Positions 17,310 through 57,267 of a stretch of DNA of 64,000 nt are shown one piece after another. The notes beneath the pieces are model-generated. The model was not told the DNA's origin. It saw nothing but the letters and a program-made list of their open reading frames with translations, and ran no database searches. This stretch comes from Squalus acanthias. Its lineage: Eukaryota. The stretch lies in assembly GCA_030390025.1 (NCBI GenBank), contig CM059432.1:24182001-24246000 (forward strand), given 5' to 3'. A program made the position numbers and the translations under genes. Positions within the stretch are counted from its first letter, which is position 1; the number at the start of each line of letters is the position of its first letter.

Positions 17310-17632
17310 TTCTTTGGCAGCACCTCCCAAACCCACGACCTCTACCACCTAGAAGGACAAGGGCAGCAGGCGCATTGGAACACCGTCAACTGCAAGTTCC
17401 CTTCCAAATCACACACCGCCCTGACTTGGAAATATATCGCTGTTCCTTCATCATCGCTGGGTCAAAATCCTGGAACTCCCTCCCTAACAGCAATGTGAGA
17501 GTACCTTCACCACACGGACTGCAGGGGTTCAAGAAGGCAGCTCACCACCACCTTCTCAAGGGTAATTCGGGATGGGCAATAAATGCTGGGTTTGCCAGCG
17601 ATGCCCACATCCCATGAACGAGTAAAAATAAA
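17310..17632 (+). mobile_element. 3' fragment of a second APE-RT LINE family (CR1-group/jockey-like, here 'family B')
   Basis: KSWNSLP...FKKAAHHHL; 3' end aataaatgctgg...cccacatccc matches 53750-54075. Confidence 0.85.
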
Positions 17633-17919
17633 ATGAGGTGTCTGTGTAAGACATGGGAGGCCTAAAATTTCTGGGGCACAGCTGTGCCAAATAAAGTGCA
17701 GAATGGCAGCCAATCTGCAGGGCTTGTGACCCTGTCGGAATTCCCAGTGTCCGGCTCATTTTTATGGGGGTGCACCACTGATGATGTTACTCTAGAGTAG
17801 CACCTTTCTGTAGTGTAAAGGCTGTTCTGGCTGAAGATGGCCACAGAGACCATATTTTTTAAAGAATTTGTAGTTGGCATTTTCCCAACGGTAATCAATT
17901 GCTCTGCATAAGTGTCCAA

Positions 17920-18213: not shown

Positions 18214-20650
18214 TTTTTTTATTCATTTCTGGGATGTGGGCGTCGCTGGCAAGGCCAGCATTTATTGCCCATCTCTAATTGCCTTTGAGAAGGTGGTGGT
18301 GAGCCACCTTCTTGAACTGCTGCAGTCTGTGCGGTGAAGGTTCTCCCATAGTGCTGTTAGGGAGGGAGTTCCAGGATCTGACACAGTGACGATGAAGGAA
18401 TGACAATATATTTCCAAGTCAGGATGGTGTGTGACTTGGAGGGGAACTTGGAGGTGATGCAGTTCTAATGTGCCTACTGCCCTTGTCCTTCTAGGTGGTA
18501 GAGGTCGCGTGTTTGAGAGGTGCTGTTGAAGAAGCCTTAGCGAGTTGCTGCAGTGCATACTGTAGATGGTACATACTGCAGCCACGGTGTGCCGGTGGTG
18601 GAGGGAGTGAATGTTTAAGGTGGTAGACGGGGTGCAAATTAAGTGGGCTGCTTTGTCCTGGATGGTGTCGAGCTTCTTTAGTGTTGTTGGAGATGCGCTC
18701 ATCCAGGCAAGTGGAGAGTATTCCATCACACTCTTTGTAGATGGCGGAAAGGAAGCTTTGGGGAATCAGGAGGTGGGACACTCACCACAGAATACCTAGC
18801 CTCTGACCTGCTCTTGTTGCCACAGTATTTATGTGGCTGGTCCAGTTAAGTTTCTGGCCAATGGTGAACCACAGGATGTTGATGGTGGGGGATTCGGCGA
18901 TGGTAATGCTGTTGAAAGTCAAGGGGCTGTGGTTAGACTCTCGCTTGTTGGAGATAGTCATTGCCTGGCACTTGTGTGGCGCGAATGTTACCTGCCACTT
19001 ACCAGCCCAAGCCTGAATGTCGTCCAGGTCTTGTTGCATTCGTGCATGGACTGCTTCATTATCTGAGGAGTTGCGAATGGCACTGAACATTGTGCAGTCA
19101 TCAGCAAACATCCCTATTTCTGACCTTATGTTGTAGGGAAGGTCATTAATGAAGCAGCTGAAGATGGTTGGGCCTGGGACACTGCCCTGAGGAACTCCTG
19201 CAGCGATGTCCTGGTGCCGTGATGATTGACCTCCAACCACCACAACCATTATCCTTTGTGCTAGGTATGACTCCAACCAGTGGAGAGTTTTCCCCATGAT
19301 TCCCATTGACTTCAATTTTACTAGGGCTCCTTGATGCCACACTCGGTCAAATGCTGCCTTGATGTCAAGGGCAGTCACTTTCACCTCACCTCTGGAATTC
19401 AGCTCTTTTGTCCATGTTTGGACCAAGGCTGTAATGAGGTCTGGAGCCGAGTGGTCTTAGTGGGCATCAGTGAGCAAGTTATTGGTGAGTAAGTGCCGCT
19501 TAGTAGGATTTGTCCTGCTTTTTGTGGACAGGACATACCTGGGCAATTTTCCATATTGTTGGATGCTGTTCCAGTGTTGTAGCTGTACTGGAACAGCATG
19601 GCTAGAGGCGCGGCTAGTTCTGGAGCACAAGTCTTCAGCACAACAGCCGGGATGTTGTCGGAACCCATATGGCTGGATTTTGATACTGGGGTCGGGTTGG
19701 TGTCGTGAATCCCACTTTTTGGGTTGTAGACCCGCCTCCATTGACTTGTGGCCAACCCACTGTATTTTCCCTTGATTGGCCTTGTTGAGCCCGCCCATTG
19801 GGCTCAGCAGGCCAATTAAGGGCCACCCGGCAACAGGTGACATCACAGATTGACATTTCATCTGTCAAGAGCTTTTGACAGATGAAATATCAGCGTTTGA
19901 CAGCTCTGTGAAGCTGGCAAACACTCACAATATGATTTCTAACTTGAGTCCTTCCTCTCAGGCTGAGTTAGAAATCATTCCAGCACAGAAAAAAGAAGGC
20001 TGGAGTTTTTGACAGCACCACGGCTTTTCTGCTTTCTGTGCCGGTGAGATTTCTGACTCCCGAGAACTGAAGGGCTGACACCTGCAGGAGGAAGTTAAGG
20101 TAAGTAAAACATTTTTCCACACTTTGCACTTAGCTTACACACTTACCTCTGCACACATGCACCCATCACTCACCTGCCCACCGGACATATCGACCCCTCC
20201 AACCCCTGCAGACCCACGGTCCGCCCCGATAACTTGCCGTGGTTGGCACCTGTCGGGAAGCCCACATTTCAGCGATTAAAATAGGGATTAGGCAAAAAAC
20301 TGCCTGTTAACTACCTGTTAATAGGCGGTTAATTGTCACTAATCCCTTCCCGCCTCGGGGAGTCGGGTCCCAGCACAGGTCGGGTACCCGCCGCCAGCGA
20401 AACTGGCATGGAGGCGGGTTGGAGGCGGGATGGGGTCGGGACCCCAGAATCTGCAACTTTAACCCCCCACACGCCTCCAAACCCGCCTCCACGGGTCAGT
20501 GAAAATCCAGCCCACAGCCTTTGATGTATCCAGTGCGCTCAGTTGTTTCTTGATATCACGTGGAGTGAATAGAATTGGCTGAAGACTGGCTTATGTGATG
20601 CTGGGGACCTCAGGAGGAGGCCGATATGAATCATTCACTCGGCACTTCTG
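18214..20650 (-). mobile_element. Family B LINE, 5'-truncated, internally deleted and interrupted by a MITE
   Basis: ORF 18782-19426: LDIKAAFDRVWH, GVPQGSV, FADDC; colinear with 52400-54075. Confidence 0.9.
19670..20513. mobile_element. Harbinger-type non-autonomous element inserted in the LINE
   Basis: TIR (t)ggctggatttt / aaaatccagccc; 3-bp TSD ata/aca; host LINE resumes on both sides. Confidence 0.85.
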
Positions 20651-24410: not shown

Positions 24411-25178
24411 AAACAAATGGGAACTAGAGCTGGAGGAGGTTGTGCAAGTAGAAGGGAGAGATCTAACAGAACAAATAAGCTTCAGGAGGATTATTAATCA
24501 AAGAGCTGGCAGACAAGGAGCCAGTGGAGATTTGCAAGGATAGAGTGTTAGCTGAGTGACACTTAATACAGGATAGGATGCAGGCAGTGTCAGGGCAATG
24601 TAGAGCTCATAGTTTATCTCTTTAAATTGGAGGTGTCTGTTTCATTTTTTTTTGATTTGCCAAAATTTGGAATTCAGGGAAGAACCCTTCAATTGATGTC
24701 TTTTTTGCTTGTGCTGAGAAGAGTTGAAGTCATTTCTTCAGGGAGATGTTTCCTGCAGCACCCTCATGGCAACTCCTGCAGGCTCCTTTACCATTATTAA
24801 ATAATATACCACAGTGAATTAAAATGGCAGGTTTCAAATCATTTTTTGGAAAAGTTGACATGCTTTCAAATGCTATTCCCTCAACAAAACTCAAGATTTT
24901 AATGACTACCTGGGAGTGATTGAAATGCAGTAATCTCAAAAAGGAGTTAAGAATGAGATCATAAACCAAGAGCCATTTGTAACTGAGATATTTGCAGTGA
25001 TGGTCCAAGCTCTGCTATACTGGTTGTAAACAGTTTTGCGTAATTTAAAAACCTATGTGAAAGGCTAAGCCATGTAATACATAGATACATAGATACATAG
25101 AAGATAGGAGCAGGAGTAGGCCATCCGGCCCTTCGAGCCTGCTCCGCCATTTAATGAGATCATGGCTGATCCTCCAAT

Positions 25179-28100
25179 TCAGTATCCCGTCCCCGCCTTC
25201 TCTCCGTAACCCTTAACCCCTTTTGCCTGTAGAAATATATCTAATTCCCTCTTAAATATATTTAATGAGCTGGCGTACACTGCCCTCTGTGGCAATGAGT
25301 TCCACAGGTTCACCACCCTCTGAGTGAAGAAATTCCCCCTCATTTCTGTCCTAAATGGTTTAGCCCTTATCCTTAAATTATGTCCTCTAGTTCTGTTCTC
25401 ACCCGCCAAGGGAAACATTCCTTCTGCATCTAGTCTGTCTAGACCTGTCAGAATTTTATACACTTCTATGAGGTCCCCTCTCAATCTTCTAAACTCCAGT
25501 GTATACATCCCTAAACTACATAGTCTCTCCTCATAGGTCAATCCCGCCATTCCTGGTATCAGCCTGGTGAATCGCCGCTGCACCCCCTCCATGGCAAGAA
25601 CATCTTTCCTCAGATGAGGCGACCAAAACTGTACACAGTACTCGAGGTGTGGTCTCACCAGTGCCCTGTACAGCTGCAGCAAGGTATCCCTGTTCCTGTA
25701 TTCCAACCCTTTTGCTATGAAGGACAGCATACCGTTTGCCTTCTTGACCGCCTGTTGCACCTGCATGCTCGCCTTCAGTGACTGGTGTACAAGAACACCC
25801 AGGTCTCTCTGTACTTCCCCCTCTCCCAATTTATTGCCATTTAAATAATAATTTGCCCTCCCGTTCCTGCACCCAAGGTGGATAACTTCGCACTTGTCCA
25901 CATTATAGTGCATCTGCCATTTATCCGCCCAATCACCCAGTCTGTCCAAATCGCTCTGGAGCTTCCTGGTCTCCTCCTCTGAGCCCACCCCCCCTCCTAG
26001 TTTAGTGTCGTCTGCAAATTTGGAAATGCTGCATCCGACTCCCTGATCCAGGTCATTAATGTAAATTGTGAACAGCTGGGGACCCAGGACAGATCCCTGT
26101 GGTACCCCACTTGTTACTGCCTGCCATTCAGAAAATGAGCCGTTTATTCCAACTCTCTGTTTTCTATCTGACAGCCAGTTCTCTATCCACGTCAATACTT
26201 TCCCCTTTATCCCATGAGCTTCAATTTTCCATGCTAATCTTTTATGTGGGACCTTATCGAAGGCCTTTTGGAAGTCCAGGTACACCACATCTACTGGCTC
26301 TCCCCCATCTATTTTACCAGTTACTCCCTCAAAAAATTCCAATAGATTAGTCAAGCACGATTTACCCTTTGTAAATCCATGTTGACTCTGTCCTATCCTG
26401 TCCCCATTTGCTAAGTGCTTCGCTATTTCATCCTTAATGATGGACTCCAGCATTTTGCCCACAACTGATGTAAGGCTTACAGGTCTGTAATTACCTGCTT
26501 TTTCCCTACCCCCCTTTTTGAATAGTGGGGTAACATTAGCTACCCTCCAATCCATGGGCACTGTTCCCGAGTCTAATGAATTCTGAAAAATCATACTTAG
26601 TGCATCCGCTATCTCTAGGGCCACCTCCTTCAGTTCCCTAGGATGCATGTTATCAGGCCCTGGGGATTTGTCCGCCTTCAATCCCTTTAGCTTCCTTAAC
26701 ACCATATCCTTAGAGATATTGATTTGCGTCAGTTCCTCCTTTGCCAATGTCCCTATTTTTCCCGATATCCCAGGGAGGTTTTTTGTGTCTTCCTTCGTAA
26801 AGACTGACCCAAAGTATGCATTTAGTTGGTCTGCCATTTCCTTATTTCCCGTTATATATTCCCCCGTATCTGACTGCAATGGACCAACTTTGGTTTTCAC
26901 CAGTCTTTTCCTCTTGATATACTTATAAAAGCTTTTGGAGTTAGTTTTTATATTTTCCGCCAGCTTGCTTTCGTAAGCTATTTTGCCCCTCTTGATTAAG
27001 CCCTTTGTCCTCCTTTGCTCTATCTTAAACTGTTCCCAATCTTCCGCTCTGGCGCTTTTTTTTGGCTATTTTATATGCCCTATCTTTGGATTTTATGCTG
27101 TCTCTAATTTCCCCTGTTATCCACGGTTGAGTCACCTTTTTAGATTTCCTTTTATGCCAGATTGGTATAAACAATTTTTGCAATTTTGTCATTCTATCTT
27201 TAAATGCTTGCCATTGTTTATCTACCTCCAGTCCTCCCAGGAACGTTGTCCAATCAGACCTACTCAGTTCCCGTCTAATGGCATCATAATTCCCCTTGTT
27301 TAAATTCAGGACCTTAGTCTCTGAGTCAATTTCTTCGCTCTCCATTTCGAGTGAGAAATCGATCATGTTATGATCGCTCTGACCCAAGGGTCCATAGATA
27401 CATAGATACATAGAAGATAGGAGCAGGAGTAGGCCATCCGGCCCTTCGAGCCTGCTCCGCCATTTAAGGAGATCATGGCTGATCCTCCAATTCAGTATCC
27501 CGTCCCCGCCTTCTCTCCGTAACCCTTAACCCCTTTTGCCTGTAGAAATACATCTAATTCCCTCTTAAATATATTTAATGAGCTGGCGTACACTGCCCTC
27601 TGTGGCAATGAGTTCCACAGGTTCACCACCCTCTGAGTGAAGAAATTCCCCCTTATTTCTGTCCTAAATGGTTTAGTCCTTATCCTTAAATTATGTCCTC
27701 TAGTTCTGTTCTCACCCGCCAAGGGAAACATTCCTTCTGCATCTAGTCTGTCTAGACCTGTCAGAATTTTATACACTTCTATGAGGTCCCCTCTCAATCT
27801 TCTAAACTCCAGTGTGTACATCCCTAAACTACATAGTCTCTCCTCATAGGTCAATCCCGCCATTCCTGGTATCAGCCTGGTGAATCGCCGCTGCACCCCC
27901 TCCATGGCAAGAACATCTTTCCTCAGATGAGGCGACCAAAACTGTACACAGTACTCGAGGTGTGGTCTCACCAGTGCCCTGTACAGCTGCAGCAAGGTAT
28001 CCCTGTTCCTGTATTCCAACCCTTTTGCTATGAAGGCCAGCATACCGTTTGCCTTCTTGATCGCCTGTTGCACCTGCATGCTCGCCTTCAGTGACTGGTG

Positions 28101-29050
28101 TACAAGAACACCCAGGTCTCTCTGTACTTCCCCCTCTCCCAATTTATTGCCATTTAAATAATAATTTGCCCTCCCGTTCCTGCACCCAAGGTGGATAACT
28201 TCGCACTTGTCCACATTATAGTGCATCTGCCATTTATCCGCCCAATCACCCAGTCTGTCCAAATCGCTCTGGAGCTTCCTGGTCTCCTCCTCTGAGCCCA
28301 CCCCCCCTCCTAGTTTAGTGTCGTCTGCAAATTTGGAAATGCTGCATCCGACTCCCTGATCCAGGTCATTAATGTAAATTGTGAACAGCTGGGCCCCCGT
28401 ACAACAAGATTACTAATTAGTCCCTTCTCATTGCACAGTACCCAGTCCAATATAGCCTGTTCCCGAGTTGGTTCCTCGACATATTGATCCAGATAACGAT
28501 CCCTTAAACACTCAAGGAATTCCTCCTCCTCATTATTTTTACTGATTAGGCTATTCCAATCTATATGTAAGTTAAAGTCACCTATGATGACAGCTGTGCT
28601 CTTATTGCACGCTTCTCTAATTTCCCTCGTGATGCCCTCCCCAACCTCTATTTTACTATTTGGAGGCCTATATACCACTCCTATTCATGTTTTTCGCCCC
28701 TCGCTATTTCTTAGCTCCACCCATATAGATTCTGTATTAACTGAGTTAATATCCTTCCTTTCAATTGCATTTATCCCCTCTTTTACCAGCAATGCTACCC
28801 CTCCTCCCTTTCTTTTTTGTCGATCCTTCCTAAATACTGAATACCCCTGTATGTTAAGCTCCCAGCCCTGCTCACCCTGCAACCATGTTTCCGTAATCCC
28901 AATTAGATCATAATTATTAACCTCTATTTCCACAGCTAATTCATCTACCTTGTTCCTGATGCTTCTCGCATTAAGGTATAAAACCCTCAGGCTTTTTTTA
29001 TGCTCACATTTTTTATGAATTAGTTTGGCCCTTTGTTTTTTGTTCCTCAC
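25179..29050 (-). pseudogene. CR1 ORF2 (APE endonuclease + reverse transcriptase), disrupted
   Basis: YLNARSIRNK, GITETW, VYRPP, GDFN, SDHN; 573-aa open RT segment with YLDFQKAFD and FADDTK; lesions are an in-frame TGA at 28685, a nested insertion at 27394-28390 and a +1 shift in an A-run at 27056-27063. Confidence 0.92.
27394..28390 (-). mobile_element. 5'-truncated CR1 of the same subfamily nested in the APE domain
   Basis: 997 bp nearly identical to 25081-26077 with its own tail; flanked by gggtcc/gggccc. Confidence 0.9.
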
Positions 29051-29159
29051 CCTTTTACCATTTATTTCTGTCTGCCTTTCACTTTCCTCTATTTCACTAC
29101 ATAGGTTTCTAGCCCCCTGCCATACTAGTTTAAATGCTCCCGAACTGCTTTATCAAAAA

Positions 29160-30069
29160 TTACCCGAGAACATCAGTTCCATCTTTGCACAGGTGTAGAC
29201 CGTCCCTTTTGTATAGGTCACACCTACCACAAAACTGGTTCCAATGCCTCAAAAATTTAAAACCCTCCCTCTTACACCACTGCTCAAGCCACGTATTTAG
29301 CCTAACTATCCTGTTCTCTGTACTCTTACTAGCACGTGGCACTGGTAGTAATCCAGAGATTACTACCTTCGAGGTCCTACTTTTTAGCTTGGCTCCTAAC
29401 TCCCTAAATTCTACTTGTAGGACCTCTTCCCTTTTTTTAGCTACGTCGTTGGTACCAACATGTATCACGACAACTGGCTGTTCCCCCTCCCCTTCCAGAA
29501 TGTTCTGCACCCGCGCCGAGACATCCTTGACCCTTGCACCAGGAGGCAACATACCATCCTGGAGTCTTGGTCGCGACCACAGAAACCCCTATCTATTCCC
29601 CTTACAATCGAATCCCCTATTACTATAGCCCTGCCACTCTTTTTCCCTCCCTTCTTTGCAACAGAGCCAGTCATGGTGCCATGAGCCTGGCTGCTGGTGC
29701 CTTCCCCCGATGAGTCATCCCCCCGACAACAGCACCTAAGGCGGTGAACCTGTTGCTAAGGGAGACAACCCCAGGGGATTTCTGCACTACCTTCCTGCCC
29801 TTGCTCTGCCTTTTGGTCACCCATGTACTATCTACGCTGGCCTTAACCTGCGGTGTGACCAACTCACTAAATGTGTTATCCACAACCCTCTCAGAATCGT
29901 GGATGCTCCAAAGTGAGTCCATCCGCAGCTCAAGGGCCGTCATGCGGTCCCACATGAGCTGCAGCTGGACACACTTCCCGCACACATGGTTGTCAGGGAC
30001 ACATGAAGCGTCCCTGATTTCCCACATGTTACAGGAGGAGCATGACACAGGTCCGAGCTCTACTGCCAT
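29160..30069 (-). pseudogene. CR1 ORF1: N-terminal Cys cluster plus SGNH/GDSL esterase-like domain, two frameshifts
   Basis: CSSC...HVCGKC; IVIGDSIVR, IHVGTND and DGLHL blocks across ORFs 29671-30069, 29465-29674 and 29160-29552. Confidence 0.9.
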
Positions 30070-30517
30070 GACTTAACTGTTATATTACTTTTTAATTTTC
30101 TAGTTTTAGTTTATTTATTGACTTTTGTTTTCCCGAAGCTTACTTAGACCAATGTATACTGTACTCCTCTTATTCCTTTTTAAACTAACCAAATCCCACT
30201 AGTTTTAGTTTTACTTTCTAGGAAGGTTTGAGGAAAGTACTTACCAGTTAGTCTTACCTCCCTGGTCTTTCGCTGACTTCCCGGTCTTGTGTCTCCTTGG
30301 TCCTACGCCGACTTCCCGCTCCTCCCGGTAACCGTCCTGCCCTGCTGAAAAGAAACTGAGACCAAAAAATTTGTGACCTCTGTTTTTAGACTGCTAAAAG
30401 ACTAGTAGGTTAGAGGAGGAGGGCGGGTGGGGGTTCCTACTCTGTAGGAACTCGGGTTTAAGCCACCACCCTCCTTAAATGCCGTTCACCTGGGTGCTTC
30501 CCAAATGGTCCGCTTCC

Positions 30518-31288
30518 GGTCTCGTCGCTCCCGACAACAGCCTGTGAAGAAAAGCCCGCGAAAGTGAGTTCAAATACTCACAGCACCTCACAGCACCTCT
30601 GGTCTCGTCGCTCCCGACAACAGCCTGTGAAGAAAAGCCCGCGAAAGTGAGTTCAAATACTCACAGCACCTCACAGCACCTCTGGTCTCGTCGCTCCCGA
30701 CAACAGCCTGTGAAGAAAAGCCCGCGAAAGTGAGTTCAAATACTCACAGCACCTCACAGCACCTCTGGTCTCGTCGCTCCCGACAACAGCCTGTGAAGAA
30801 AAGCCCGCGAAAGTGAGTTCAAATACTCACAGCACCTCACAGCACCTCTGGTCTCATCGCTCCCGACAACAGCCTGTGAAGAAAAGCCCGCGAAAGTGAG
30901 TTCAAATACTCACAGCACCTCACAGCACCTCTGGTCTCGTCGCTCCCGACAACAGCCTGTGAAGAAAAGCCCGCGAAAGTGAGTTCAAATACTCACAGCA
31001 CCTCACAGCACCTCTGGTCTCGTCGCTCCCGACAACAGCCTGTGAAGAAAAGCCCGCGAAAGTGAGTTCAAATACTCACAGCACCTCACAGCACCTCTGG
31101 TCTCGTCGCTCCCGACAACAGCCTGTGAAGAAAAGCCCGCGAAAGTGAGTTCAAATACTCACAGCACCTCACAGCACCTCTGGTCTCGTCGCTCCCGACA
31201 ACAGCCTGTGAAGAAAAGCCCGCGAAAGTGAGTTCAAATACTCACAGCACCTCACAGCACCTCTGGTCTCGTCGCTCCCAACAACAGC
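30518..31288 (-). repeat. Tandem array of 9.3 x 83-bp monomers forming the CR1 5' UTR
   Basis: Units start at 30518, 30601 ... 31265; only two substitutions seen (both CG>CA). Confidence 0.97.
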
Positions 31289-31331: not shown

Positions 31332-31849
31332 GGGGGAAAAATTCGTTGTCGCCCGGAAAGCAGTCAATGTCCTCGCCAACTGCCGTTAACGGCCGTCCGA
31401 AATGGCCGCAGCGCTAACAAGGTAAATTGGCGTGGGGGGTATGGTGGCAGGTGGCGCAGCGATAAGCTTAGGTGCAACGCCGTCCTGGTGGTGTTGCACG
31501 AGGGACCAATTTGTTGTGCTGGTGCGGCGTTGCTGCTTCCCCGAGCGTCTGTGTGCGAGGCTGTGAAGCTCGCAATGCATTGTGGGCAGTGAGAGCCTGG
31601 CGTGCTTAGGACCCAGCGCTGAATTGAGCGCTAGGGTCGAAGTTCGCATAGGTGACGTTAAGTCGGCGTTGCACGCTGATTGATGTCACCATGCCGCCAT
31701 TTTTTTTTTACAGGGCGCTGCCGGTTACCGGCCGTGCAAAGGGGCCCACGAATATGGCGACTGCCGTGGGGATTGCCTCCAGCAGGCTGCCATTTTTTCA
31801 AGAATCGTTGGCGCTAACAGGGGGCGGTAAGTATATGAATTTCTCGCCC
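31332..31849. mobile_element. Harbinger-type MITE
   Basis: TIR gggggaaaaattcgt / atgaatttctcgccc, similar to the 10552 and 63046 TIRs; TSD not preserved. Confidence 0.65.
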
Positions 31850-31860
31850 TAACAATCTCA

Positions 31861-32341
31861 TTTTTTTAATTCATTCTCGGGATGTGGTCGCCCCTGGCAA
31901 GGCCAGCATTTATTGTCCATCCCTAGTTGCCCTTGAGAAGGTGGTGGTGAGCTTTCTGCTTGAACCGCTGCAGTCCGTGTGCTGAAGGTACTCCCACTGT
32001 GCTGTTAGGGAGGGAGTTCCAGCGTTTTGACTCGGCGACGATGCAGGAATGCCGATATATTTCCAAGTCCGAATGGTGTGGGACTTGAAGGGGTACCTGG
32101 AGGTGGTGATGTTCCCATGTACTTGGTGTCCTTGCCCTTCTAGGTGGTGGAGGTCACAGGTTTGGGAGGTGCTGTTGTAGAAGCCTTGGCGAGTTGCTGC
32201 AGTGCATCCGTATTGTAGTACACGCTGCAGCGCTGGTGTACCGGTCGTAGATGTTTGTAGTGGTTGGGCTGCCGATCCTGCTTTGTCCTGGATGGTGTCA
32301 AGGTTTTTGAGTGTTGTTGCAGCTGCACTCATCCAGGCAAG
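31861..32341 (-). mobile_element. Family B LINE 3' fragment
   Basis: LAWMSAAATTLKNLDTIQDKA; 3' end matches 18214-18720. Confidence 0.85.
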
Positions 32342-32691: not shown

Positions 32692-33790
32692 ATGGGTGCC
32701 GCTTATGCTGCCTTCGATTGGACCTCAGATGAGGACCAAGGTGACCAGCAATATCACCAGCAGCAGCACCCGCAGCGGTCTGCTGCTCACAGACCTGTAG
32801 CTCCACAGGAGAGAGGGCAGCAGCAGAGTGGGGAGCAGCAGAGAGGCGACTGGTAAAGCGGTGCAGCTCGCAGGAGGCAATACCCACGAAACAGGGTCTA
32901 GAGGCAGAGGCTGATGTCACGTCAGGTGGAGGTAGACATCTGCAGCCTCCAAGAAGAAGACCTGCTGCCTGCTGGACCTGGTGGCCACGTGTTACCAGTG
33001 GGTGTCAAAGTTACCACTGCCTACAACTTCCAGGGCTCTACCACAGACATATCCAGGATCTCCCAGTCGTCCGCCCACAAATGCACAAGAGAGGTGACTG
33101 ATTGCTTGTTTGGCAGGGCTGGCAATTATGTCAACTTTGCCACCGATGATGCCAGTCAGAATGAGGGTTTGCAGCTCTGGCTGGCTTCCCACAGGTGCAG
33201 GGTGTCATTGACTGCACACATGTGACAATCTGGGCACCCTAGATCAACCAGGAGTATTCATCAACGGCAAGGTCTTCCACTCCCTCAATGTGCAGCTGGT
33301 GTCCAACCACAAAAAGATGTTTATGATGGTGTGCGCAAGATTCCCGGGCAGCTGCCATAATGCTTTTGTCCTGCGGCAGTCCAAGCTCCCGATCTCTTTG
33401 GACCTGGAATCAGACTTAAGTGATGGCTACTAGGTGACAAGGGATAGCCACTGCAAATTTGGCTCATGATAACCGTTAGAAACCCGACCACTGAAGCCCA
33501 ACAGCGCTACAATGAATGCCATATCACCACCAGATGTGTGATCCAACAGGCCATCGGCATGCTGAAGATGCACTTCAGGTACCTGGACAGATCATGAGGC
33601 ACCCTTCATTACACACCAGCATCTCCAAAATGGCCATGGTTTGCTGTGCACTGCACAACATTGCACCGCAGCGAGGCTTGGACCTGCAGGAGGAACAAGG
33701 TGAAGAGCTCAGATCCTCTTCGGACGATTTGGAGGCAGAGGAAAAGAGGAGGAGTAGGAGAAGGAGGAGGGTGATGAGGGGAATGCACCC
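32692..33790 (+). pseudogene. PIF/Harbinger DDE transposase (HARBI1-like) pseudogene
   Basis: Fragments [82 protein letters not shown], with stops and frameshifts. Confidence 0.9.
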
Positions 33791-34776: not shown

Positions 34777-36546
34777 GGGCTGAATTTTGCCGGCGCTCAG
34801 AGTGCGGGTTTGGAGGCAGGTCCGCTGTCAAAATCACAAAGATTGACAGTAGATTGGTATCCCGCTGTAAACCCGCCTCCTTGTCAGTTTCTCAAGTGTC
34901 AGGTCTGCTATCCCCGAACAGACCCAACACCAAGTGACAGGCCTGCCAATTTAGATAGTTAAAAGCTTATTAAAAGGCAGTTAAGAGCCATTTTCCCATG
35001 TATTTACCATTTTACAAGATTTTCAATGAGGCTATCATGTCAGTTAAGTGTGTCGGGTTCTCAATGACTGTGGATTGCTGTGAATAGGTGAATGCTGCAA
35101 AAGTGTTATAAAACCTACCATTTCACAGATGTTCACTTCCCAATCTTAAAAGCTCGAGCATTAATGATTTGGATCCCACTTTTGAGCTTTATACACTTTT
35201 GAAGTGTTTGGAGTAATCACTCTATCCACTGTCACCTCCTTGGCACAAACTATCTCAATAATGACTGATTACTTCTGTCATCTCAACATCACCTGCCATC
35301 TATTCCATCAGCATCGGTGCCCTTGAAATAATCTCATCTTTGTCCTCAGAATCCTAACAAGATCAGCCCCAATACAAGCAGCACCAGGCACACCAGCAGC
35401 ACCAACATCCACACCAACCTTCTCCGCAATCAACTAAGGCTGCACTGGATACAGGGCATCATCACCCAAGCACATTGCTGCCCAGGACGCCAGCAATGGC
35501 CTCACCATGTCCACTTTTGCTTCACTTAACACTGTACACCCTGGCTAATACATGATGCACCAGGTTGGCACCACCCCACACCAACATCATAAAGCATCCC
35601 TACAATGTTCAAGCCATTCTTTTCACACTCATCACCATTGCGGGGGGTACCGTTATGTCTCACCATTCATTGCAACTCACGAAGCCACTTCCAAAGGTGC
35701 ACACAAATCTGTCCAAGAATGCAAAGTTTTCAAAATAAAGATTTCAATGTTTGACAGCACATTAACAGAAACTTCACATGAACATTGGCTAAACCACCCA
35801 AGTGCCCACCCTTGTTTGTTGTTAGTTGGTATGATTGGACTAGGATGAGGGTGAGTGTGAGGGGTGGTTAGTGAGATGGGGAAGTGATAATGTAGATAGA
35901 GGGCTGGGTAGAGGCGCAAGGTAAGTTGGTTTGAGTAAAGATGTGCAGGAGTAGGGTAGGGAAGGCAGAGTGATGGGGATGTGATGAGTGGCACAGCAGG
36001 ATGAGGTTGAGTGTGGCTTGGCAGTAACATTTCGTGATCTACTGAGATCATTGAAAGGTTTGCACCACTGCAGCCTGGTCCTCCTGACGACATCCCTGCT
36101 TGTGCCCTCCTGTGCAATATACAACCGGGCTGCGTTGGTCTCCTCGTGAGGTGTCATCCGCCCATTGGAAGGGAAGAGGACCTCCCTGTGTGCTGTGACT
36201 CCCTCCATAAGCATATGGAGGGAATCATGGGAGAGCCTGGGTGCAGCCATGCACCTTTGTGCAGTGCTTGTCAGTGTTTGCAGCACCTCAATGCTGTAGA
36301 ACACTGATAGCACAACTGTCAAAATCAATTTGGACATGGTCCCATTGAGGAAACCGGCTGATGACGTGTCATCAAATGATGTCATCAGACCTGCTTCCTA
36401 TTAATTGGCCGGGAACCTCGCACGGCGGGCTTAAGAAGCCCTATTAACGTAAAATCTTGGAGGCCGGGATCGAGACAGATGTGAGGTCCCCACATGCCAC
36501 TACCATTGCCCGCCATGGACCTGCCGAGGTTGTAAAAATACAGCCC
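34777..36546. mobile_element. Non-autonomous PIF/Harbinger element with a Myb/SANT remnant on the minus strand at about 36025-36260 (copy 2)
   Basis: TIR gggctgaatttt / aaaatacagccc; CTA TSD; AAPRLSHDSLHMLMEGVTAHREVLFP...RRTRLQWCKPFNDL. Confidence 0.9.
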
Positions 36547-40445: not shown

Positions 40446-41151
40446 GTTTTCACTTTACGAAGGGAAAGAAACAGACCTGTCAACTGTTGCTGTCAAAAAT
40501 TCCGAACATGTACTTGACACCAGAGCAGGTTAGCATAAACTCAGGCTTTTTTCAGAGGCAGGAATAACCTGTTATGGTCGACTGTGTGAGAACATGTGTT
40601 CAACCAGGTAAAAGTGGAGCTCCTCCGATGGAATCTAGGTGTCACATAACAACAAAGGGAGGGAATTCCGGAGTTCAGGGCCTACGAGCTGAAAGCACGG
40701 CGCCAACGGAAAAGTGTTTAAAATAGAGGATGTGCAAGAGGCCAGAATTGGAAAAGCACAGAGATCGGGGATAATTTTGACTTTGTAAAACGGGTGGTAT
40801 TGATTCAGCTGCGTGCTGCGCATCTCTCCCGATTTTCATTTCCAGTGACTTCAAAGTCACAATGACCCTCATGGTGATTTCTCAGTCTGAACTATATTGT
40901 GCTGATACTGGATATTATCTGATAAAATAGTTTTTCAACGTGTGATAGTCAGTACTGCAGCAATCGTTTACCTTTATTACAGTGCCTCTCCTGCGCACCT
41001 GAAGAGTATACAAGAAAAAACTTTTCAATGGTATAAAACTTTCAATGGAAAGTATAATCAGGTGGGGTGTAAAAGGGGCAACCGATCCAAACCAGTCACT
41101 TTCCCTCCGAGCGGGTTCGGTTAAAATGACCCCCTCGGTCTGAACATAGTG

Positions 41152-43499
41152 AAGGGAAGGATTAATTAGCAATCTTGTTGTGCGAGGCCCCTTGGGGAGG
41201 AGCGATCATAATATGATAGAATTCTTCATTAAGATGGAGAGTGAAGTAGTTGACTCAGAGACTAGGGTCCTGAATTTAAATAAAGGAAACTACGATGGTA
41301 TGAGGTGCGAGTTGGCTAGGATGGATTGGGGAGCATTACTTAAAGGGTTGACAGTGGATAAGCAATGGCAAACATTTAAAGATTGCATGGATGAACTACA
41401 GAATTTGTTCATCCTTGCTTGGCATAAGAATAAAACAAAAAAGGTGACCCAACCGTGGCTAACAAGGGAAATTAGGGATAGCATAAGATCCAAGGAGAGG
41501 GCATATAAATTGGCCAGAAAAAGTAGAAAACCTGAGGATTGGGAGCAGTTTAGGATTTAGCAAAGGAGGACAAAGGGATTAATTAAGAGGGGGAAAATAG
41601 AATATGAGAGTAAGTTTGCAGGGAACATAAAAACTGACGGTAAAAGCTTCTATAGATATGTGAAGAGAAAAAGATTGGTGAAGTCAAGCGTAGGTCCCTT
41701 GCAGTCACAATCAGGGGAATTTATAATGGGGAACAATGAAATGGCTGACGAATTAAATACATACTTTGGTTCTGTCTTTACAAAGGAGGACACAAATAAA
41801 CTCCCAGAGATGTCGGGGAACATAGGGTCTAATGAGAGGGCGGAATTGAATGAAATCAGTATTTGTAGGGAAATGGTGTTAGGGAAATTGATGGGATTGA
41901 AGGCCGATAAATCCCCAGGGCCTGATAATCTACATCCTAGGGTACTTAAGGAAGTGGCCCTAGAAATAGTAGATGCATTGCTGGTCATCTTTCAAAATTC
42001 TATAGACTCTGGAACAGTTCCCATGGATTGGAGGGTAGCTAATGTAACCCCACTAGTTAAAAAAGGTGGTAGAGAAAAAACGGGGAATTATAGACCGGTA
42101 AGCCTGACATCGGTAGTGGGCAAAATGCTAGAGTCCATTATAAAAGATGTAATAGCAGAGCACTTGGAAAACAGTGACAGGATCGGACAAAGTCAACATG
42201 GATTTACAAAAGGGAAATCATACCTGACTAATCTACTGGAATTTTTTGAGGATGTAACTGGAAGAATAGATAAGGGAGAACCAGTGGATATGGTGTATTT
42301 GGACTTTCAGAAGGCTTTCAATAAGGTCCCGCATAAGAGATTAGCGTGCAAAGTTAAAGCACATGGGATTGGGGGTAAGGTACTGATTTGGATAGAGAAC
42401 TGGTTGGCAGACAGGAAGCAAAGAGTTGGAATAAACGGGTCTTTTTCCGAGTGGCAGGCAGTGACTAGTGGGGTACCACAGGGATCGCTGCTAGGACCCC
42501 AGCTATTCACAATATATATTAATGATCTAGATGAGGGAACTAGATGTAATATCTCTAAGTTTGCAGATGACACAAAGCTGGGTGGGCGCGTGTGCTGTGA
42601 GGAGGATGCAGAGAAACTCCAGTATGATTTGGACAAGTTGGGTGATTGGGCAGATGCATGGCAGATGCAGTATAATGTGGATAAATGCGAGGTTATCCAC
42701 TTTGGTGGCAAAAACTGGAAGACAGATTATTATCTGAACGGCAATAGATTGGGAAAAGGGGAAGTGCAATGAGATCTGGGAGTCCTTGTGCAACAGTCGC
42801 TGAAGGTAAGCATGGAGGTGCAGCAGGCGGTTAAGAAGGCAAATGGTATGTTGGCCTTCATAGTGCGAGGATTCGAGTACAGGAGCAAGGATGTCTTGCT
42901 GCAGTTGTACAAGGCCTTGGTGAGACCACACCTTGAGTATTGTGTGCAGTTTTGGTCGCCTTATCTGAGGAAGGATGTTCTTGCCATGGAGGGAGTGCAG
43001 CGAAGATTCACCAGACTGATACCTGGGATGGCATGAATGACGTATGAAGAGAGATTGGGTCGATTAGGCTTATATTCGCTAGAGTTTAGAAGAATGAGAG
43101 TGGATCTCATTGAAACTTATAAAATTCTAACAGGACTAGACAGACTAGATGCAGGAAGGATGTTCCTGATGGCGGGGTAGTCCAGAACCAGAGGTCACAG
43201 TCTAAGGATAAGGGGTAAGCCATTTAGGACTGAGATGAGGAGGAATTTCTTCACCCAGAGAGTGGTGAACCTGTGGAATTCTCTACCACAGAAGGCAGTT
43301 GAGGCCTATTTATTAAATATATTCAAGAAGGAGATAGATATATTTCTTAAGGCTAAAGGGATCAAGGGATATGGGGAGAAAGCAGGGACAGGGTACTGAA
43401 TTTGGATGATCAGCCATGATCTCATTAAATGGCGGAGCAGGCTCGAGGGGCCGAATGGCCTACTCCTGCTCCTATCTTCTATGCTTCTATGCTTCTATG
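41152..43499 (+). mobile_element. 5'-truncated CR1 (end of APE + RT + tail), several stops; related to the 25077 element
   Basis: ORFs 41180-41560 (SDHN), 41660-42772 (RT), 42788-43036; tail (cttctatg)n. Confidence 0.95.
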
Positions 43500-51092: not shown

Positions 51093-54075
51093 TCAGAGAA
51101 ATGCACCGCTACGAAACACAATAATAAGAATGAAACCGGATGGACCAACCGGCATCGACCTCGGCACCGGATACGGACACGGCAACGGCCACCCAGCCCA
51201 GTCGACACTGCAAAGTCCACCTCACCAATATCTGGGGACTTGTGCCAAAATTGGGAGAGCTTATTCCACAGACTAGTCAAGCAATAGCCTGACATAGTCA
51301 TAGTCACAGAATCATACCTGCCAGCCAATGTCCCAAACTCCTCCATCACCATCCCTGGGTATGTCCTGTCCCACCGGCAGGACAGACCCACCAGGGGTGG
51401 TGACACAGTGGTATACAGTTGGGAAGAAGTGGCACTGGGTGTCCTCAACATTGACTTCGGACCCCATGAAGTCTCATGGCTTCAGGTCAAGCATGGGCAA
51501 GGAAACCTCCTGCTGATTACCACCTACCGCCCTCCCTCAGCTGATGAATCAGTACTCCTCCATGTTGAACACAACTTGGAAGAAGCACTGAGAGTAGCAA
51601 GGGCACAGAATGTACTCTGGGTGGGAGACTTCAATGTCCATCACCAAGATTGACTCGGTAGCAACACAACTGACCGAGCTGGCTGAGGCCTGAAGGACAT
51701 AGCTGCCAGTCTGGGCCTGCGACAGGTGATGAGAGAACCAACACGAGGGAAAAACCTACTTGACCTCGTCCTCACCAATCTATCTGTTGCAGATGCATCT
51801 GTGCATGACAGTATTGGTAGCAGTGACCACCGCACAGTCATTGTGGAGACGAGGTCCCGTCTTCACACTGAGAATACCCTCCATCGTGTTGTGTGGCACT
51901 ACCACCGTGCTAAATGGGATAGATTCAGAACAGATCTAGCAGCTCAAAACTGGGCATCCATGAGGCGCTGTGGGCCATCAGCAGCAGCAGAATTGCATTC
52001 CACCACAATCTGTAACCTCATGGTCCGGCATATCCCTCACTCTACCATTACCATCAAGCCAGGGGACCAACCCTGGTTCAATAAGGAGTGTAGAAGAGCA
52101 TGCCAGGAGCAGCACCAGGCATACCTAAAAATGAGGTACCAACCTGGGGATGCTGCAACACAGGACTACATGCATGCTAAAAAGCGGAAACAGTATGCTA
52201 TAGACAGGGCTAAGCGATCCCACAATCAAGGGATCAGATCAAAGCTCTGCAGTCCTGCCACATCCAGTCGTGAATGGTGGTGGATCATTAAACAACTAAC
52301 TGGAGGAGGAGGCTCCATGAATATCCCCATCCTCAATGATGGTGGAGCCCAGCACGTGAGTGCAAAATACAAGGCTAAAGCGTTTGCAACCATCTTCAGC
52401 CAGAAGTGCTGAGTGGACGATCCATATCGGCCTACTCCTGAGGTCCCTACCATCACAGTAGCCAGTCTTCAGCCAATTTGATTCATTTCACATGATATCA
52501 AGAAATAGCTGAGCGCACTGGATACAGCAAAAGCTATGGGCCCCGACAACATCCCAGCTATCGTGCTGAAGACTTGTGCTCCAGAACTAGCCGCACCTCC
52601 AGCCAAGCTGTTCCAGTACAGCTACAACACTGGCATCTATCGAACAATGTGGAAAATTGCCCAGGTATATCCTGTCCACAAAAAGCAGGACAAATTCAAT
52701 CCGGCCAATTACCGCCCCATCAGTCTACTCTCAATCATCAGCAAAGTGATGGAAGGTGTCGTCGACAGTGCTATCAAGTGGCACTTACTCACCAATAACC
52801 TGCTCACTGATGCCCAGTTTGGGATCCGCCAAGACCACTCGACTCCTGACCTTATTACAGCCTTGGTCCAAACATGGACAAAGGAGCTGAATTCCAGAGG
52901 TGAGGTGAGAGTGACTGCCCTTGACATCAAGGCAGCATTTGACTGAGTGTGGCATCAAGGAGCCCCAGTAAAATTGAAGCTAATGAGAATCAGGGGGAAA
53001 ACTCTCCACTGGCTGGAGTCATACCTAGCACAAAGGAAGATGGTTGTGGTGATTGAAGGTCAATCATCACAGCCCCAGGACATCGCTACAGGAGTTCCTC
53101 AGGGCAGTGTCCTAGGCCCAACCATCTTCAGCTGTTTCATCATTGACCTTCCCTCCAACATAACGTCAGAAATGGGGATGTTCACTGATGACTGTTCAGC
53201 GCTATTCACAATTTCTCAGATAATGAAGCAGTCCATGTCCGCATACAACAAGACCAGGACAACGTTCAGGCTTGGGCTATTAAGTGGCTGGTAACATTCG
53301 CGCCACAGAAGTACCAGGCAATGACTATCTCCAACAAGTCAGAGTCTAAGAACCACCCCTTGACATTCAATAGCATTACCATCGCCAAGTCCCCCTCCAT
53401 CAACATCCTGGGGGTCACCATTGAACAGAAACTGGAACAGCCACATAAATACTGTGGCAACAAGAGCAAGTCAGAAGCTAGGTATTCTGTGGCGAGTGTC
53501 TCACCTCCTGAATCCCCAAAGCCATTCCACCATCTACAAGGCACAAGTAAGGAGTGTGATGGAATACTCTCCACTTACCTGAATGAGTGTAGCTCCAACA
53601 ACACTCAAGAAGCTCGACACCATCCAAGACAAAGCAGCCCGCTTGATTGGCACCCCATCCACCACCTTAAACATTCACTCTCACCATCACCGGCGTACCG
53701 TGGCTGCAGTGTGTACCATCTACAAGATGCATTGCAGCAATTCGCCAAGGCTTCTTCGGCAGCACCTCCCAAACCCGCGACCTCTTCCATCTGGAAGGAC
53801 AAGGGCAGCAGGCACATGGGAACACCACCACCTCCAAGTTCCCCTCCAAGTCACACACCATCCAGGCTTAGAAGTATATCACTGATCCTTCATCGTCACT
53901 GGGTCAAAATCCTGGAACTCCCTCCCTAACAGCACTGTGGGAGTACCTTCACCACACAGACTGCAGCGGTTCAAGAAGGCAGCTCACCACCACCTTCTCA
54001 AGGGAAATTTGGGATGGGCAATAAATGCTGGCCTTGCCAGCGGCACCCACATCCCAGAAACAAATTTAAAAAAAG
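51093..54075 (+). mobile_element. Family B LINE, near-complete APE-RT ORF with many stops
   Basis: TESY, TYRPP, GDFN, SDH (APE); NYRPISLL, LDIKAAFD, GVPQGSVLGP (RT); aataaa and A-rich tail. Confidence 0.92.
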
Positions 54076-56949: not shown

Positions 56950-57267
56950 TTCTTCGACAGCACCTCCCAAGCCCGCGACCTCTACCATCTAGAAGGACAA
57001 CAGCACCAGGTGCATGAGAACACCATCAACTCCAAGTTCCCCTCCAAGTCACACATCATCCTGACTTGGAAATATATCCCCGTTCCTTCATTGTCACTGG
57101 GTCAAAATCCTGGAACTCACTCCCTAACAGCACTGTGGGAGTACCTTCACCACACGGACTGCAGCGGTTCAAGAAGGCTCACCACCACCTTTTCAAGGGC
57201 AATTAGGGATGGGCAATAAATGTTGGCTTTGACAGTGACGGCCACATCCCAGGAACGAATAAAAAAT
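56950..57267 (+). mobile_element. Family B LINE 3' fragment
   Basis: Colinear with 53750-54075. Confidence 0.85.

Follow-up and report, generated by a model that had tools for sequence, protein, structure and literature searches.

We consider that the tandem array at positions 30518..31288 (minus strand) of the window, by which we mean the whole 64-kb stretch of shark DNA analysed, is the repeated 5' leader of a CR1 element, whose 83-bp monomers, by analogy with mouse L1, probably act as stacked internal promoter units and whose transcripts probably retrotranspose unspliced. Tandem Repeats Finder assigns the array a period of 83, 9.3 copies and 99% matches. Counted from the 5' end of the element, nine units are complete and a tenth stops after 24 nt, and the units differ by two substitutions in 771 bp (31280 and 30856), both CpG transitions. 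Each unit divides into an exon-like half of 43 nt, with a 10-nt duplication inside it, and after this an intron-like half of 40 nt (30582..30624 and 30542..30581, respectively, in the last whole unit, minus strand). The intron-like half presents, every 83 bp, a GTGAGT donor-like motif, a branch-like or initiator-like CTCAC, a pyrimidine tract and CAG. The near-identical 83-bp units and their order of motifs are thus as the original prediction had described them. Donor and branch motif form a palindrome, GTGAGT-N6-ACTCAC (30564..30581, one per unit), predicted to fold into a 6-bp hairpin that pairs the one with the other. Next to it lies the putative E2F-like site TTTCGCGG (30556..30563, minus strand), also one per unit; the initiator-like motif, again one per unit, is likewise putative.

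With a GC content of 54% and a CpG observed/expected ratio of 0.86 vs 0.41-0.42 in the flanks, the array exceeds all other parts of the element in CpG richness, and its monomers are indeed CpG-rich, as first proposed. Its last 24-27 nt pass directly into unique 5' UTR. The two changes per 771 bp are in line with the unique part, where private divergence is ~0.5% (at least 8 substitutions in 1,718 bp), and also with the 7 differences per 1,001 bp between two sibling 3' ends described below. Growth of the array in place after insertion and insertion as a whole array fit these data alike. An origin by back-splicing or rolling circle was rejected by reasoning, because only the 43-nt half would then multiply. 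An Rfam search gave three matches, all far below the gathering score and none in the monomer, and a reading of the palindrome as an antisense tRNA T-arm or B-box is unsupported. The monomer pattern had no match in metagenome, prokaryote-genome and viral contigs.

The host element, on the minus strand, has an esterase ORF1, an endonuclease/reverse transcriptase ORF2 and an 8-bp repeat tail, and is a cartilaginous-fish CR1. Canonical CR1 elements carry a short tandem repeat at their 3' end in place of poly(A). ORF1 (29125..30069), with a Cys-rich N-terminus and an SGNH esterase domain (Lipase_GDSL_2, E 2.8e-10, which identifies an SGNH/GDSL esterase), lies in three pieces in this copy. Against the contigs of each of the four public runs compared below, it shows gaps of one base near 29718, 29541 and 29162, which may be real or may be assembly errors in G/C runs. 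Its named relatives (7 named among 21 matches) come from sawshark, smooth-hound, skate, stingrays and chimaera, at 57-75% identity. An alignment search with ORF1 also returned 10 distant metagenome loci (23-36% identity), whose tandem repeats were uninformative, and no match among viral contigs; no homologue of the N-terminal piece was present among 67 candidates. At its end (29125-29134) ORF1 reads TTTAAAC and then TAG. The first part of ORF2 (28394..29134), which encodes the APE endonuclease (Exo_endo_phos_2, E 2.7e-9), has an in-frame stop at 28685-28687, and the remainder (25179..27392) encodes the reverse transcriptase (RVT_1, E 2.6e-31). Between them, in the endonuclease region, a 5'-truncated sibling of 1,001 bp is inserted (27393..28393, minus strand), with 7 differences from 25080-26080. 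It is thus 99.3% alike to the host's own 3' end, has CCC at both junctions, and is a CR1 that landed in a member of its own family. The 3' UTR and tail follow at 25077..25178, the tail being made of 3.1 copies of the 8-bp unit (25077-25101); at the element ends, exact target-site duplications do not exceed 2 nt. The description of this CR1 as full-length therefore holds for its extent and fails for its intactness: ORF1 lies in three pieces, and ORF2 carries a stop as well as a 1-kb insert, so that neither ORF is intact and the copy is dead.

Elsewhere in the window there is neither another ORF1 nor another 5' UTR. An older CR1, ~80% alike, lies at 41150-43499 (plus strand) and is 5'-truncated near the ORF2 position hit by the nested sibling, which is probably a coincidence. 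At 43 bp from the CR1 5' end begins a GC-rich, MITE-like stretch (31332-31852), whose imperfect inverted ends were seen by eye and are not among the computed pairs. It is followed by a repeat of 320-500 bp (31857-32341), probably a SINE or LINE tail, with relatives 79-83% alike at 17318-17637, 18214-18711, 53574-54074 and 56950-57266. Frames at 32902-33225 and 35840-36397, which had no Pfam match, are putatively Harbinger-like.

Between array and ORF1 extends a unique, tether-like 5' UTR of 448 nt (30070..30517, minus strand), GC-rich in its first part and AT-rich in its last 160 nt. It contains two CANNTG E-boxes 15 bp apart (30507 and 30492, within 30487..30507), and the first of them reads CAGGTG in three of the runs (X1, X4 and X16; rows 30504 and 30505), matching the second. 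The element thus shares the E-box pair of canonical vertebrate CR1 elements, a reported feature of their 5' UTRs, e.g., in chicken CR1-B (PMC2734521). Their location in the unique UTR suggests that array-independent transcription from this region is possible.

Whether the array belongs to the family or to this locus can be judged from 19 public runs that hold words of the stretch, all as contigs; 13 of the 19 hold half or more, and these come from six organisms. Five of the 19, with shares under 0.2, were left out, and four were compared over 28800-30645: X1 and X4, which are labelled RNA by guess only, X15 and X16. Contigs of all four, representing four organisms, contain the monomer, and in X1 (30327-30568) as well as in X16 (29979-30544) its junction with the unique UTR is spanned by single contigs. 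Three contigs, of 113 nt in X1, 113 nt in X15 and 104 nt in X16, have lengths consistent with closed loops of 83, 83 and 74 nt, respectively, as deduced from 31-letter words, and one joint in X4 "goes back 83". The monomer in four runs, its junctions with the UTR and these tandem joints indicate that the array is a trait of the family and not a quirk of the locus, in agreement with the original prediction. The 74-nt units of X16 and X4 are variants without the 10-nt internal duplication, in which the GT donor and the YAG/G acceptor are kept; the splice-like motifs are in this respect conserved, as had been expected. Three X15 contigs agree up to 30581, which is both the G of the donor and the edge of the palindrome, and diverge beyond it among the rows listed, so that the 40-nt half seems to be common to another exon-like half. 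The place of 30600 is C at full depth in X1, X15 and X16 and T at all junctions of this array, which implies that the array was homogenised from one unit, either in the parent or in place. Contig depth of the monomer relative to the unique UTR ranges from ~0.8 (X4) to 11.5 (X15), depth not being a copy number.

An 838-nt joint in X4 has no sense-strand splice ends and coincides with a loose end also found in X15; we read it as a probable paralogue. Over 28800-30517, each of the four runs shows contig depth climbing stepwise from the 5' UTR towards ORF2, which 5' truncation or a set of subfamilies with a common ORF2 would produce, and X1 and X4 may consequently reflect DNA or read-through instead of element transcripts.

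This recurrence bears on one alternative, according to which the array is a passenger minisatellite: the first bases of the element would have been duplicated and multiplied by slippage or unequal exchange, the E-box region alone would act as promoter, and the splice-like appearance would result from chance and a single palindrome. Such an origin agrees with the continuity of the last 24-27 nt of the array with the unique UTR. It agrees also with the predicted folding, in which two units and 24 nt do not surpass shuffles in stability (z 0.41) and only local hairpins are firm. Nonetheless, a tandem monomer kept in four organisms in 83- and 74-nt forms, and forming the most CpG-rich part of the element, speaks against a mere passenger, which we regard as unlikely.

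How far the unit resembles an intron was examined by our own scoring against the splice-site consensus. A donor-like GCT/GTGAGTAT occurs in each unit (31245, 31162 ... 30581), and an acceptor-like site, a pyrimidine tract (9 of 12 pyrimidines) with CAG/G and no further AG close by, precedes 31205 ... 30541. By the U2-type consensus, the unit has the expected GT donor, branch motif 18-40 nt before YAG and pyrimidine tract, the branch-like A lying at position 17 of the 40-nt "intron" and 23 nt from its end. Within one unit, however, donor and branch motif are 16 nt apart, short of the U2-type spacing of about 50 nt or more. The minimum distance from 5' splice site to branch is given as ~50 nt, and 35 nt abolished assembly in a test cited in PMC6692369. 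The splice signals hence appear too tightly spaced for excision inside one repeat.

From a donor to the branch motif of the next unit, by contrast, arithmetic gives 99 nt, which is enough by the ~50-nt minimum, and the original prediction had proposed that splicing from a donor to the acceptor of a later unit, before retrotransposition, could change the number of monomers. Both of its distances, 40 nt within the unit and 123 nt to the next acceptor, are correct, and human L1 elements with spliced 5' UTRs do retrotranspose (PMC5860796). Yet each such event would remove 123 nt (in general 40+83k nt) and leave a 43-nt scar rather than a series of intact monomers, units could not be gained in this way, and spliced human L1 leaders have reduced promoter activity (PMC5860796). 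None of the nine units of this array bears the scar, all nine 40-nt "introns" are retained, and this copy has no precise GT-AG deletion of the kind that defines SpIREs. In the four contig sets, the joints listed (8) and the indel rows listed (7) include neither a 40-nt skip nor a GT-AG joint, and hence no splice junction in the monomers. As a negative this is weak, since rare forms are lost from contigs and X1 and X4 are labelled RNA by guess. We therefore hold it highly improbable that splicing changes the monomer number.

The joint pattern is rarer than chance would make it. Circular dinucleotide shuffles showed donor, acceptor and branch motif together in 17 of 5,000 cases, and among 1,520 other 83-mers taken from the window 9 had all three; with the 6-bp hairpin added, the counts are 2 of 5,000 and 2 of 1,520. 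The thresholds were set after the fact at the observed values, so that these rates flatter the motif. That 9 of 1,520 ordinary 83-mers show the same splice pattern is in keeping with a minisatellite. The same is true of the palindrome, since CTCAC is the reverse complement of GTGAG, and donor and branch motif are therefore one palindrome and not independent, the antisense strand carrying GTGAGT too. The exact 6-bp complementarity of GTGAGT and ACTCAC was correctly noted at the outset: the palindrome occurs nine times in the 64-kb window, all within the array, against 0.09 expected. Folding predictions give the six donor-branch base pairs a probability of 0.91-0.97, and donor and branch are 0.92-0.98 paired at three folding spans, which supports, as a prediction, the earlier suggestion that the hairpin masks the donor. 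Such masking argues against the use of either donor or branch site. Signals too close together and a predicted hairpin over them suggest that transcripts likely retrotranspose unspliced.

Splice signals could also be used without splicing. The leader of 1,219 nt contains 11 donor-like sites, nine in the units and two in the unique UTR, and the two latter, GAG/GTAAGA (30257) and CTG/GTAAGT (30244), both within 30237..30260 on the minus strand, are stronger than those of the monomers. Duplex energies are -9.6 and -10.5 kcal/mol for 30257 and 30244 vs -7.4 kcal/mol for the unit donor, and 30257 is predicted open (probability of being paired 0.00-0.03). Two overlapping AATAAA hexamers (30110..30119, minus strand) lie 125-138 nt behind these donors, and the AATAAA 138 nt downstream of 30257 is also predicted open. 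The arrangement over 30110-30260, donors ahead of overlapping AATAAA, is in itself that of a possible U1-protected polyadenylation signal.

On this basis, U1, perhaps with U2AF, could bind the leader and shield the intronless nascent RNA from Restrictor termination and from the AATAAA of the UTR, while the 40-nt spacing prevents excision. In mammalian cells, Restrictor is blocked by a 5' splice site close to the promoter even when no splicing takes place (PMC12211998), and the X15 contigs that are common exactly to the donor's G and then differ would agree with such a role. However, the same boundary is the palindrome's edge, the monomer donors are predicted shut (0.97-0.98) and have no exon-side pairing, sites of the unit-donor score occur about twice per kb in the window anyway, and small or artificial introns give no protection from HUSH (PMC8770142). 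As an explanation of the whole leader, we find this shield quite improbable; for the two unique-UTR donors only, it is compatible with a monomer promoter. Evasion of HUSH by the leader was rejected, because neither spliced stuffers nor a small artificial intron conferred protection (PMC8770142). A fuller version, to which we also give a low probability, is that the family uses its splice signals unspliced throughout: mini-introns too short to excise and folded shut would be followed by open U1 sites ahead of the element's own polyadenylation signal, with the RNA starting exactly at the acceptor boundary. If this were true, an intronless retrotransposon would pass the U1/Restrictor checkpoint like an intron-bearing gene with its promoter kept whole.

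The 5' end of the element deserves separate consideration. Its first base, 31288, is the base right after the acceptor-like AG in unit phase, and no microhomology is shared with the flank there. Such a coincidence is expected in about 1 of 83 cases by chance, for a single case spotted post hoc; it fits a start site at the boundary, and no reading explains it with confidence. One alternative would be promoter borrowing, in which the acceptors catch host transcripts entering the element, 30541 to 30257/30244 becomes an exon of 284-297 nt, and the 5' end is a trace of this processing. The start directly after AG would agree with it, as would the good acceptor anatomy outlined above and the retention of YAG/G in the X4 and X16 variants, and mouse L1 has upstream-started, spliced transcripts (PMC10620060). 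Against it, the branch motif is predicted paired (0.92-0.98), a spliced RNA would include a host exon instead of starting at the junction, and no loose end at 30541 or 30624 is present among the 24 of 171 rows listed. We judge promoter borrowing very unlikely.

We thus return to stacked promoter monomers moved unspliced. Transcription would start at or near the unit boundary, and the 40-nt half, with its palindromic site, E2F-like site and initiator-like pyrimidine stretch, would serve the unit that follows it as an upstream core promoter; the E-boxes behind the array would be the basal promoter of the family. Internal starts and 5' truncation would remove units, and duplication (unequal exchange, slippage or re-priming) would restore them and also homogenise the array. 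We infer each step that involves transcription; the position of the array, its linkage to the family, its CpG richness, the motif geometry and the nine retained 40-nt "introns" are observed directly. The order of parts, an array at the extreme 5' end, then 448 nt of unique sequence with its E-box pair, then ORF1, argues for a promoter. Points against it are the G/G pair at the first position of the array, in unit context, which is not a pyrimidine/purine initiator of the kind preferred by mouse L1 starts (PMC10620060); the lack of a YY1 core (CCATNTT) on both strands of 30060-30624, i.e., in the last unit and the UTR; the fact that the 5' end was seen in a single case; and a joint splice pattern rarer than chance (17/5,000) and kept in variants, which a promoter leaves as a by-product.

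The literature searched, which comprised few subscription journals and lay outside Repbase, Dfam and supplements, yielded no description of monomer leaders or splice motifs in shark CR1 elements, and none of promoters of shark or ray CR1-group elements. The supplements of PMC13343379 may be a place where the consensus of this family already stands. Repeats in CR1-group 5' UTRs are already known. Turtle and pufferfish CR1-group elements have a 32-bp direct repeat in the 5' UTR (as cited in PMC2734521), and some ORF1-less CR1-group elements have arrays of one to five subunits of 100-500 bp (PMC13343379). The shark copy differs from these in being a canonical, ORF1-bearing CR1 with nine 83-bp units, and has the E-box pair in the UTR in common with them. 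As far as searched, the texts of PMC2734521 and PMC13343379 do not tie splice motifs to these 5' repeats.

Splice signals in LINEs have precedents of other kinds. Tamura, Kajikawa and Okada reportedly described in 2007 functional splice sites in zebrafish ZfL2 LINEs, which belong to the CR1 group; these sites are not known to be arranged as a tandem monomer leader. Human L1 SpIREs likewise involve donor and acceptor motifs inside a LINE 5' UTR and are recognised by precise GT-AG deletions in integrated copies (PMC5860796), of which none was found for the shark CR1. The donor in the human L1 5' UTR coincides in part with a RUNX3 site required by the promoter, and promoter function is the presumed reason for its retention (PMC5860796), which offers a good model for a donor-like palindrome that may be kept here as a DNA site.

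The closest likeness is to the mouse L1 families A, Gf and Tf (L1Md), which share with this element CpG-rich, near-identical units in tandem at the very 5' end, followed by a tether and ORF1 (PMC6454616, PMC10620060, PMC5381506), the monomers-tether-ORF1 layout of mouse and rat L1 matching that of this shark CR1 (PMC5381506). Insertions of mouse L1 are taken to show by their 5' end where transcription of the parent started, such ends cluster at starts inside monomers, and internal starts lose units that duplication restores (PMC6454616, PMC10620060). The contributions of mouse monomers are not simply additive (PMC9022269), so that the additive action first suggested for the shark units is too simple even for mouse L1. 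Differences are equally clear: mouse units measure ~200 bp vs 74-83 bp here, belong to another LINE clade, and number 3-4 on average in young families vs nine in this copy, and the mouse G and T types have a YY1 core near the start, of which the shark CR1 showed none; the shark unit, unlike mouse L1, has donor-, branch- and acceptor-like motifs, and its promoter role is predicted. The short modular unit is suited to dissection with reporters, and if the splice motifs work without excision, the element would allow one to study in a natural setting how retroelements without introns get past surveillance by early termination. In sharks and rays, CR1-group elements account for 22-34% of the genome (PMC13343379), and with a monomer leader in a CR1 that bears ORF1, the mouse-L1 answer to 5'-end loss would be seen to recur in another LINE clade.
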